From the NCBI GenBank assembly GCA_964187785.1, contig OZ076409.1, forward strand, positions 68,574,001-68,638,000: a stretch of 64,000 nucleotides of DNA. The letters are read 5' to 3'. The position numbers were made by a program, and so were the translations under genes. This document shows, one piece after another, positions 16,798-19,700 of the stretch. The notes under the pieces were generated by a model. That model saw only the letters and a program-made list of their open reading frames with translations, had not been told where the DNA came from and did not search any database. Source of the DNA: Amphiscolops sp. MND2022 (lineage: Eukaryota). Positions within the stretch are counted from its first letter, which is position 1, and each line of letters opens with the position of its first letter.

Positions 16798-19700
16798 CCA
16801 AAAAAGATAGTGGGTTAGAAATAGAATTCATGCTAGATACAGGAGCAGCCTGTTCAATCATCAATCACAGAGCTTTTGAGGAAATTGCCCAGTTTGGACA
16901 ACCCATCACGGTAGTCAGGAGCAAACAGCTGACTAAAACCTATACTGGTGAAGTTATACCGATGCTTGGATCAACAACAATCACATTCAGTTTCGACTCG
17001 GATGGACTCCATCCTGTAGAGCTAAAGTTTTGGATAACAGAAGCGAAGACACCCAATTTACTGGGAATAGATTTCTGCCGTCAACTTGTTTCTAAATTAC
17101 ATTTTGATTTGCCTGCAATCGAATTGAAAGACAGTCCTAACACGATTTGCTACGGTAACCTTTGTGCTACCAAACCTTTCCCATACGTTTCAAAGGTCGA
17201 AACAATACGAACAGATAACCCAATTTGCATCGATGCCAAAACTACCCGCCTACACATATACTCCCGCGAAAATAACAGACATTTTGCACCCGGAACATCA
17301 TTCACACCCCACAAAAATGCAGTCAAAACAGGACTTACCTTTGTGAATGTTTTATGTACGAAGTCCGAATCCCACCTGCCAATTTTGATTGAAAATAATC
17401 GAAATCACCAAATAACCCTTAATAGAGGAATAATTGGTCATGCTATCATAGACCTACAGGAAAAAGAACGACCAAAGTTCCAGATAAAGGATTGCGTCAC
17501 GATGGTCAACACAATTTTAAAGGAAAACCCAGACTACAACGACTGTTCTTGCTACACTCAACAGTTCCCTTCGAACACGAAGGAGATCAACAAGTTTTTC
17601 TAAGCCACGGCTCCGGCGAGACCCTTCGAGCCTCAAATGCAAATCTAGCCTTTTGTGTCTCAGCAGATGGAAAAATGACAACCACGTTCGCAAAAAGGTT
17701 GTGCGAACAGAACAAAGATTTTCAGAATTTCGTGAACCAGTCGAAACCTTTCGTCGGATCAGTTTTACTCTTTTGGGATAACGAAGCTAGTCGCTTCATC
17801 TATGGACTAGTTGCAAAAAAGAGATGTTACGAAAAAATTAAACCCGAAGATTTTCGCAGTTGCATCGAAAATTTGGTTGGACACGCACAACTAAACAATA
17901 TACCTGCAATTTCAATACCCAAAATTGAAGATGGCTTAGATAACATTCACTGGAAAGGAGCTTTGGACATAATCCGGAACAGCTTCGATTATGGACATAT
18001 TAAAGTCGAGATCGTATCACGAAACGAACCGAACCTCCAATTTGTTAACGCTTCCATACGAAAAGAAGAAGTAGAAGAAGGAGATATTGACTATTATACA
18101 GAACAATTTGCTAATGGTACTGAAGAACTTGAAACAGATTTTGCTACGGATGCTAAATCGTGTCAGCCACCCTGTACAGAACAATTTGTCGAGCTTAGAG
18201 CAAAAGAAGACAATGACGCACTAATTGATTACTATCTCCAATATCAGCCTGAGGAAATCAAGGAATATGTAAAGAAATTCGATTTCCGATATACTGACCT
18301 CGAAGATGAAGAATTGGTTGTCTTGATAGACATGCTTATTGACTCAGCGGACGTGTACTCACAACACAAATTTGACGTGGGAAAAGTACGTCAAAAATTT
18401 CACGTAACACTCAAAGCCAATTCAGAACTCAAGAAACAACGACCAAGCAAAGTACCCCTTCACTTGAAGGACAAACTTGAGAAGTTACTTGGACAACTCC
18501 AAGAAGCCGATATCATTAGAGAAATGGGAGACGATGACGAACTAGGTTCCCTTTTTGTCAATCCGATCATTCTGATGCCCAAAGCAGACTACGTAAAGTT
18601 AGTAATCGACGCCCGCTACTTAAACTCCATAACAGATCTGACAAATTACTCGTGGCCATTGGAACCCATTCAGATGATTATGACTCGGATTAACGGAAAG
18701 TACTTCACGGTCAGTGATTTATCCTGCGCATATCACCAAGTACCTTTGAGCGACGAGACCCAAAAACTCACTAGTTTTATTATCGGCGGAAAACAGTACA
18801 CGTATGTACGCGGTTTCTACGGACTCTGTGGACTTCCAAACTTTTTTAGCCGTCTCATGGCTATACATTTTGAGCCCCTCATCAAGCGAAAACAAGCTAT
18901 CACCTATCTTGATGACAGTCTTATGCAGGCTCAGACCAAACAAGAAATGTTCACGATAATTCATGAGTACCATCAGCTCCTGAGGAAAGCCGGACTTAAA
19001 GCTGCACCTGAGAAGACGAATTTCTTCATCAGGAAAGTCAAATTCCTAGGACATGTTATTTCTGAACAAGGAATACAACCCTTAGCAAAAAGAGTACAGG
19101 ATCTAAAAAACTTAAAATCACCCGAAAGTAAAAGAGATGTGATGAAAGTACTTGGCTGTCTTGGATTTTACAGTTGCTATATCAAAAACTTACACGTGGA
19201 TAGCCAGCCCTTCTACGATTTGATAAAAGCTACAACGCCTTTCAAATGGACGAAAGAACACGAAGACCTCTTCACTGATATAAAAAGTCGTATATGTGAG
19301 GACACTATTCTTGCTGTCCCTTCAACTGAGTACCCCTTCCACATACACGTCGATTCTTCGAACGTTGGTACTGGTTGTATACTAGTTCAACAATTTCCAG
19401 AAGGAAAAAGGATAGTTTCTTTCAATTCCCGCGTATTTGACAAAGCTGAACAAAAGATGTCCACCCTTCATCGCGAATTGTGTGGCATAGTATCAGCACT
19501 CCAAACATACGAACACTACATTATTGGATCTCCATTTCCAATATACCTCTATTGCGATCACAAACCTATTTTATACCTCTGGGGAAGAAAAGGACAGCTT
19601 TCACATCGCTTTTTCAAGTATCAGGTAACAATCACCAAGTTCCAAAACCTCAAAATCATCTGGACTAAAGGATCCAACCTCGCATTTCCAGACATACTTA

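Follow-up and report, generated by a model that had tools for sequence, protein, structure and literature searches.

The Pol polyprotein of a Ty3/Gypsy element lying in the window (the whole 64,000-nucleotide stretch of DNA analysed here) contains a macrodomain which sequence matching and predicted fold confirm as a member of the TARG1/OARD1 class. The reading we prefer, with a probability of roughly 0.5, is that it belongs to a clade of Pol-borne domains that would erase host ADP-ribose marks, and that in the family found in the window (family A) the predicted pocket has been rebuilt and then fixed in a changed or weakened form. For the families with a canonical pocket, the function is probably that of an eraser delivered in Gag-Pol and protecting the RNA, cDNA or Pol of the element. 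That the re-tuned or weakened pocket of family A still serves this conflict we regard as about an even bet.

The macrodomain is hosted by an env-bearing LTR element of 19.1 kb at positions 13231–32362 (+) of the window. The element has the Ty3/Gypsy layout with an env gene: LTRs and a target-site duplication (TSD) are present, ATGT flanking both ends, and pol follows the order protease (PR), reverse transcriptase (RT), RNase H, integrase (IN). The two LTRs differ by one mismatch and two gaps over 2,078 columns and, being near-identical, indicate a recent insertion. The features of the element are as follows.

13231..15282 (+): 5' LTR (TG...CA), with the 4-bp TSD ATGT just before it
15286..15302 (+): putative primer-binding site, beginning TGG 3 nt past the 5' LTR
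15325..16719 (+): gag ORF (Retrotrans_gag E = 4.5e-4, below cut-off)
16707..16713 (+): TTTAAAC slippery heptamer in the gag/pol overlap, pol being in the -1 frame
16812..17084 (+): aspartic protease with DTG motif (Pfam E = 3e-4, below cut-off)
17142..17453 (+): unnamed conserved segment of ~100 aa between protease and macrodomain
17540..17560 (+): frameshift in the window copy that puts protease and macro-RT-IN in separate frames
17591..18022 (+): TARG1/OARD1-class macrodomain in Pol with altered predicted pocket (PDB match, AlphaFold2 model)
18367..19075 (+): reverse transcriptase, YLDD (Pfam; approximate limits)
19328..19642 (+): RNase H (Pfam)
20534..21052 (+): integrase zinc finger and core (Pfam)
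24464..24901 (+): orphan ORF, paralogous to 25636–26268 (no Pfam match)
25636..26268 (+): orphan ORF, paralogous to 24464–24901 (no Pfam match)
26799..28955 (+): env-like fusion glycoprotein, Monjiviricetes_fusion PF24664 (E = 4e-39)
28912..29475 (+): orphan ORF common to family B (ORF comparison)
29491..30264 (+): TRAF-type MATH-domain ORF, common to family B (E = 8e-22)
30288..32362 (+): 3' LTR, with ATGT directly after it

The gene order is gag, PR, the ~100-residue segment, macrodomain, RT, RNase H, IN, two orphans, env, orphan, MATH. The heptamer TTTAAAC is found at the gag/pol overlap in 46 of 49 locus rows, and pol would presumably be entered there by -1 ribosomal frameshifting; RNA folding of the sequence downstream gave no strong structure (-5.6 kcal/mol). 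The ~100-residue segment after the protease has by eye what we take to be a dUTPase-like appearance, and Pfam and Atlas searches yield no name for it. As assembled, the window copy has its pol interrupted by a single frameshift at about 17.55 kb, after the protease and before the macrodomain, so that the open frames are 16689–17603 for the protease and 17426–22294 for macro-RT-IN (both +). The PR-macro-RT fusion is thereby broken and this copy would be unable to make the full polyprotein. The first-pass annotation had placed the domain in Pol between protease and RT; the order stands, and the macrodomain is in frame with the protease region in all 29 close copies, but the frameshift of the window copy had been missed. 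The macrodomain also lies inside one Pol frame of 1,842–1,876 codons in all 20 longer loci, three of which repeat earlier ones.

The sequence of the domain in frame 17426–22294 (+) includes LAFCVSADGKMTTTFA, further on FIYGLVAKK and then PKIEDGLD, the motifs KMTTTFA, V-A-K-K and IEDGLD lying at 17672–17692, 17810–17821 and 17924–17941, respectively. In a phmmer search of the PDB, all five matches are to TARG1 (C6orf130), with E = 2e-11. The Pfam Macro score is weak (17.6 bits, below the cut-off of 22), and Atlas assigns the domain to OARD1-like/Macro clusters at 0.95. An AlphaFold2 model built from a 75-row alignment has a pLDDT of 86.8 and was used in place of a single-sequence prediction (pLDDT 37), which was set aside. 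Residues 1–144 of the model (17591–18022) match TARG1 with a TM score of 0.84–0.85, Z = 21.7 and an rmsd of 1.7 Å over 140 aligned residues, the backbone of the model being shaped by the mostly canonical relatives in its alignment. The next-best fold matches are DarG (Z = 19.4–19.9) and the alphavirus macrodomains (Z = 14.3–14.6). By its predicted fold and its catalytic pair, the domain is thus a real TARG1-class domain within a Gypsy Pol. The TARG1/OARD1-like call of the first-pass annotation, and its limits of 17590–18020, which are correct to within one codon, are upheld by the profile search and structure prediction that it had proposed, the fold predicted being that of a macrodomain with TARG1 as best match. 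A chance match or wrong frame is ruled out by the PDB match, Atlas clusters and fold match, the MacroD/viral class as nearest match by Z scores of 14 versus 21.7 for TARG1, and a host gene trapped in the element by the in-frame, clade-wide occurrence of the domain.

The predicted pocket was compared with that of TARG1, residue numbers being taken from the phmmer PDB alignment with the H32, K84 and D125 of PMC6397177 as fixed points; the register of D20 and F22 was taken from the alignment with 124 homologs. As described in that account, K84 is the nucleophile of TARG1 and the ligand is contacted by D20, L21, F22, I44, P118, the GxG loop, H32, C33, S35, T83 and D125, the contacts of H32 and C33 being made by main-chain amides and those of the phosphate loop by dipoles; the enzyme is defined by the pattern TKx(30,35)Px[IL]GxGxD (PMC6397177). 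The corresponding features in the window are these.

17651..17692 (+): loop 1 region FCVSADGKMTTTFA, with C33, S35, D37 and M40 kept and H32 and G43 replaced
17816..17818 (+): Lys kept at the position of the TARG1 catalytic K84, preceded by Ala where TARG1 has T83
17924..17941 (+): IEDGLD phosphate-binding loop (IGCGLD in TARG1), with G123 and D125 kept and the G121 and C122 positions acidic
17939..17941 (+): Asp aligned with TARG1 D125, kept (phmmer PDB alignment)

The catalytic Lys and Asp that the first-pass annotation had seen as retained do align with K84 and D125, and are kept in 34 of 34 family-A rows. The TARG1 pattern as a whole is present in none of these rows (33 distinct copies); it is found in all 14 copies of sister family B and in 80 of 117 related proteins, a set in which many are decayed and from which three A-type rows were excluded. 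For the comparison of single positions we used 124 homologs from further away, having removed from 135 representatives the 11 that are near the clade; the set is biased towards B since it was recovered with a family-B query. At the 23 positions conserved in at least 90% of them, family B differs nowhere and the window domain differs at nine, namely H32, G43, T83, P91, G121, C122 and three hydrophobic positions; eight of the nine replacement residues occur in none of the 124 homologs. The equivalents of K84, D125, S35, C33, D37, K90 and G123 are kept, and the chance of both K and D being among the 14 of 23 positions retained is p = 0.36. Among the distal-ribose contacts, C33 and S35 are kept, the H32 position (a main-chain contact) is Phe and the T83 position is Ala. 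On the adenine side, the positions that in the 124 homologs hold D and F, together with the loop-1 glycine, are E, R and T in the window, the N-terminal register here being less certain because of a one-residue insertion. The loop-1 glycine and T83 are each 99% conserved among the homologs, and both changes in the phosphate loop, at the G121 and C122 positions, introduce new acidic side chains. The altered glycine-rich loops noted in the first-pass annotation are therefore real but were understated, since T83, H32, P91 and the adenine-side positions are replaced as well.

Family A thus lacks the TARG1 sequence pattern, and to class its domain as a standard TARG1 hydrolase would be a mistake. 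Its activity is likely to be altered or weakened, because the predicted pocket is changed. De-ADP-ribosylation can fairly be expected of those sister families that have the whole TARG1 motif, and is doubtful for family A with nine of 23 near-invariant positions replaced. We take G32 of the alphavirus macrodomain to be the equivalent of TARG1 G43. Substitution of this glycine, as described in PMC7018654, tunes both binding and hydrolysis and can reduce or abolish them, small substitutions retaining about 72–74% of the activity. This retained activity, the main-chain and dipole contacts of TARG1 set out above, the kept catalytic pair and G123, and a predicted backbone within 1.7 Å of TARG1 would all suit the view, in line with the first-pass annotation, that family A has kept a TARG1-type hydrolase of the usual kind; several of the replaced positions would then contact the ligand through the backbone. 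We nevertheless consider this improbable, as one and the same domain has gained two acidic residues in its diphosphate loop, has a beta-branched residue in place of a 99% conserved glycine and has lost the equally conserved T83, and the agreement in backbone comes from a model driven by mostly canonical sequences.

Family A, taken as copies with an identity of 96% or more across the full domain, has at least 33 members among the best 150 of 922 candidates scored, and 19 of them lie in a 1,868-codon frame. Family B, which is 42–43% identical to it in the macrodomain, accounts for all of the best 150 of 1,019 candidates at identities of at least 73%, has the same env and MATH genes in both copies compared and has young LTRs (1 and 5 mismatches). 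The window domain as query finds only proteins of its own family (4 and 8 matches), and the relatives were reached only with family B as the query. In a set of 131 related public proteins, the domain adjoins protease-side sequence in 101, RT-side sequence in 98 and both in 73; the position between PR and RT thus goes back to the ancestor of a clade that comprises several families. Since family A has amplified recently without a canonical pocket, it could spread without standard hydrolysis.

In the tree, family A branches from within the canonical clade (support 100/95), and its pocket changes are therefore derived. Its stem is 0.84 long compared with 0.15–0.34 for the nearest neighbours, and 0.76 in a quick version of the tree with 166 rows. 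In relative-rate tests, the macrodomain has 34 changes on the A side only and 5 on the B side only (p = 2.4e-6), or 32 and 8 with a second outgroup, and none of the eight other Pol segments reaches p = 0.05. The macrodomain was accelerated on the family-A stem and then held under purifying selection: between subfamilies A and A2 its dN/dS is 0.05–0.07 at dS of 0.70–0.76 (two pairs), and the eight rebuilt positions examined are identical in A and A2 save for one copy-level change. The flanking linkers have a dN/dS of 0.04–0.11, the macrodomain being no lower, so the low values speak for constraint on the protein as such and do not demonstrate catalysis. Even synonymous differences between A and A2 are confined to one of the eight rebuilt codons, so that local recombination may account for some of the identity. 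In RT, the distance to the outgroup is slightly smaller for family A than for family B, a hint of a mosaic history.

These observations bear on a further explanation, that the family-A domain is a pseudo-enzyme which has lost ADP-ribose binding and whose fold is kept as a structural part of Pol (a spacer, folding unit or protein contact). It would account for the replacement of nine near-invariant positions, eight of them by residues absent from the homologs, and for the loss of T83, of G121 in the GxG loop and of adenine-side contacts (contacts as given in PMC6397177), the alphavirus G32 effects pointing the same way. Subfamily A2 has replaced P118 as well (P118A), the best-kept part of the domain is an off-pocket hairpin, residues 51–74 (21 of 24 identical to B), and versions lacking both K84 and D125 exist in other lineages of the genome (L063 and L064). 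The pseudo-enzyme is at odds with the retention of all seven of the kept pocket residues named above, catalytic pair included, and with the fixation of the new loop residues over a dS of ~0.7, for which p is about 1e-5 under a uniform neutral model and subject to the caveat of recombination. Moreover, no other segment of Pol has diverged as far between A and B as the macrodomain, its 42% identity lying under that of every linker (53–61%), which suggests something beyond simple relaxation. On balance, we regard loss of ligand binding as somewhat unlikely, and favour a changed or weakened pocket.

TARG1-type domains also occur in other Gypsy lineages of the genome, for which 22 loci were picked by hand from the scored rows of searches with PF01661 and with a second lineage as the query. 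The domain follows IN at the end of Pol in 18 of them; two are short frames of the same group, one has the domain between RNase H and IN, and in one, which keeps the full motif, the ORF is made up of Gag, protease and macrodomain and neither RT nor IN lies close by. Canonical versions in the same genome are those of family B, L067 and L068. The retroelement domains group by their position in the polyprotein, and the AU test does not reject one clade for all of them (p = 0.107, 20 versus 20 rows). From the top 150 of 2,705 representative proteins, 44 longer ones were scanned, of which three have RT, RNase H or integrase domains, seven have ligase-III BRCT, three have NADAR and one is an RNA-virus polyprotein. 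The ligase III/BRCT fusions and the C-terminal copies on integrase would fit a housekeeping rather than a counter-defence role, the domain clearing marks of the PARP1 type where the element integrates, or else ADP-ribose by-products, for example O-acetyl-ADP-ribose or a capped tRNA primer. However, the domain is retained in the Gag-PR-macro element without RT and IN, it is distant from IN in the window's clade, and the lineage-specific burst of change suits conflict better. To our knowledge, most Gypsy elements replicate without a macrodomain, which also counts against housekeeping. According to PMC9503650, the ADP-ribose derivatives that serve as macrodomain substrates are many and varied, and we still judge housekeeping to be very improbable.

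Delivery of the domain with RT and IN is plausible because pol lies in the -1 frame behind the conserved TTTAAAC. Frameshifting there would place a few copies of the domain in each particle, beside RT and IN, and the protease may then free the macrodomain or leave it attached to RT. In the canonical families, the K84 equivalent would attack C1'' of the ADP-ribose and the D125 equivalent would resolve the adduct. The likeliest targets would be base-linked marks (on guanine N1, uracil or thymine) on the RNA or cDNA of the element, which would hinder translation or reverse transcription; Asp/Glu-linked marks on Pol are the alternative. The guanine N1, uracil N3 and thymidine-linked positions lie on the base-pairing face, so that marks there would block reverse transcription. 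TARG1 itself is described as removing N1-guanine and N3-uracil ADP-ribose from RNA through K84/D125, far more efficiently than it acts on protein (bioRxiv 10.64898/2026.03.31.715305), and as reversing thymidine-linked marks on DNA (PMC9967889). Because TARG1 acts on base marks in RNA and DNA, an eraser delivered in Gag-Pol is the likeliest role for the clade. In family A the Lys/Asp pair would now face a cleft of altered shape and higher acidity, whose ligand may be different or more weakly bound.

The writers of such marks would be host PARPs, possibly including helicase-PARP fusions. The host genome has 32 PARP matches among 41 candidates scored, and five of the eight PARP loci examined are long single-frame proteins joining an SF1 helicase to PARP, three of them with weak matches to ZNFX1 domains. 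Inspection by eye shows an H-Y-E triad in three of the helicase-PARP proteins, within their first PARP domain. The fusion proteins are candidate RNA-sensing writers of ADP-ribose. Among the best 150 candidates scored, no host TARG1 gene was identified. ZAP reportedly restricts retrotransposition (PMC4441479), and no report of ADP-ribosylation of LTR elements was found in the literature searched. It is conceivable, though rather unlikely, that ADP-ribosylation of element RNA or cDNA by helicase-PARP proteins is an anti-retrotransposon defence, that Gypsy lineages have countered it with TARG1-type erasers at several places in their polyproteins, and that the family-A domain is an enzyme of new specificity, its pocket rebuilt around the kept Lys/Asp pair by a burst of selection so as to deal with a new host mark or escape an inhibitor of the host. 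As one genome offers canonical, rebuilt and catalytic-pair-less versions together with candidate host writers, restriction of LTR elements by ADP-ribosylation, and its substrate, are directly testable there, and the rebuilt pocket of family A is a natural test of which loop residues TARG1 needs.

The closest known protein is human TARG1 (OARD1, C6orf130; PDB 4J5S, 4J5R, 2L8R), with which the window domain has 24–26% identity and shares K84, D125, S35, C33 and G123. Human TARG1 is a free protein, whereas the window domain is embedded in a retroelement Pol, fails the published pattern and has T83, H32, G43, G121, C122, P91 and the adenine-side residues replaced. The DarG macrodomain (PDB 5M3E, 5M31, 5M3I; Z = 19.4–19.9) is of the same ALC1-like class with the same position of the lysine nucleophile, but is only 14–16% identical and belongs to a bacterial antitoxin paired with DarT; a Pfam scan of the ORFs of the element found no DarT-type transferase domain.

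In RNA viruses, the use of macrodomains against PARP defence is established. The macrodomains of alphavirus nsP3 and coronavirus Mac1 are likewise embedded in a polyprotein and serve as the model for such a function, but they are MacroD-type domains without the Lys/Asp mechanism of TARG1, and the alphavirus folds are more distant (Z = 14.3–14.6 against 21.7). In the open-access literature searched, TARG1-type domains are nowhere described from the Pol of an LTR retrotransposon or Gypsy element. In the text of the survey of viral NAD-ADPr proteins (PMC9503650), the string 'transpos' does not occur, and one of the two occurrences of 'retro' concerns 2H domains. Capture of a macrodomain by a retroelement has a parallel in the epsilon-like endogenous retroviruses of fish, which have additional ORFs with macro domains (PMC4977317, citing Basta et al. 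2009); the class of those domains is left unstated in the relevant passage, whereas the domain described here is TARG1-class and in frame within a Ty3/Gypsy Pol. The words 'macro', 'ADP' and 'OARD1' do not occur in the main text on errantiviruses with gB-like or chuvirus-like glycoproteins (PMC13524379), whose supplements may list domains. The errantiviruses described there have the same LTR-gag-pol-env layout, the same PR-RT-RH-IN order and a chuvirus-like fusion protein, and the element in the window differs from them in its extra macrodomain, MATH ORF and orphan ORFs.

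TARG1-type domains also occupy other places in Gypsy-like ORFs of the same genome, as the following loci illustrate.

L068:2914-5418, single Gag-protease-macrodomain ORF of 834 aa whose TARG1 motif is fully canonical
L067:2259-7109, canonical TARG1-type domain in a Gypsy Pol, placed between RNase H and integrase
L051:7219-9567, 783-aa ORF, 3' of a Pol with a C-terminal macrodomain

No RT or integrase was found near the L068 ORF. Frames of 833–837 codons recurred many times in the genome search for TARG1-type domains, suggesting that ORFs of the L068 type form a non-autonomous family. 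The 783-aa ORF at L051 had no Pfam match. At two further loci, L063 and L064, both catalytic residues (equivalents of TARG1 K84 and D125) have been lost from C-terminal macrodomains that lie in long open Pol frames, and these domains provide natural pseudo-enzyme controls.

The closest outside row to the macrodomains of the window clade is P0242 (87/91, unstarred), an RNA-virus polyprotein of 3,401 aa (RdRP_1, helicase) that carries a TARG1-type domain at its N-terminus. This placement gives a weak hint of virus–element exchange.

Further coding sequences of the window element are listed here.

17142-17453, unnamed conserved segment of ~100 aa, 3' of the protease
24464-24901 and 25636-26268, pair of orphan ORFs lying between pol and env
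29491-30264, ORF for a TRAF-type MATH domain, within the element and 3' of env

The post-protease segment has a dN/dS of 0.01 (family A, that of the window element, vs its subfamily A2) and matches unnamed eukaryotic clusters in the Atlas at 0.93–0.94. The orphan ORFs are paralogous (27–30% identity); both are retained in A2, and neither was detected in the two copies checked of the sister family B. Seven degenerate tandem units spaced by 51–61 nt lie between them (25006-25564), and a tandem pair of 76 nt is found at 26581-26732. The MATH-domain ORF is a possible immune-signalling decoy. Family B has it too, at 27% identity and there with an N-terminus resembling a coiled coil.

Five long single-frame host ORFs are SF1 (ZNFX1-like) helicase-PARP fusions.

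L083:1033-6975
L084:746-6418
L085:806-7003
L086:3253-9540
L088:4838-9901

The PARP domains are in tandem in at least four of the five, and in three the H-Y-E triad was seen by eye in the first PARP domain. These proteins are candidate RNA-sensing ADP-ribosyltransferases.

Outside the element, the window holds the following.

12157-12930, minus strand, rhodopsin-family 7TM ORF (E 5e-11), shortly upstream of the element's 5' LTR
34379-35476 and 41384-42492, repeat pair ~7.0 kb apart
44333-44515 and 49986-50168, repeat pair ~5.7 kb apart
near 53200-54550, inverted copies

These repeats resemble the termini of other mobile elements.
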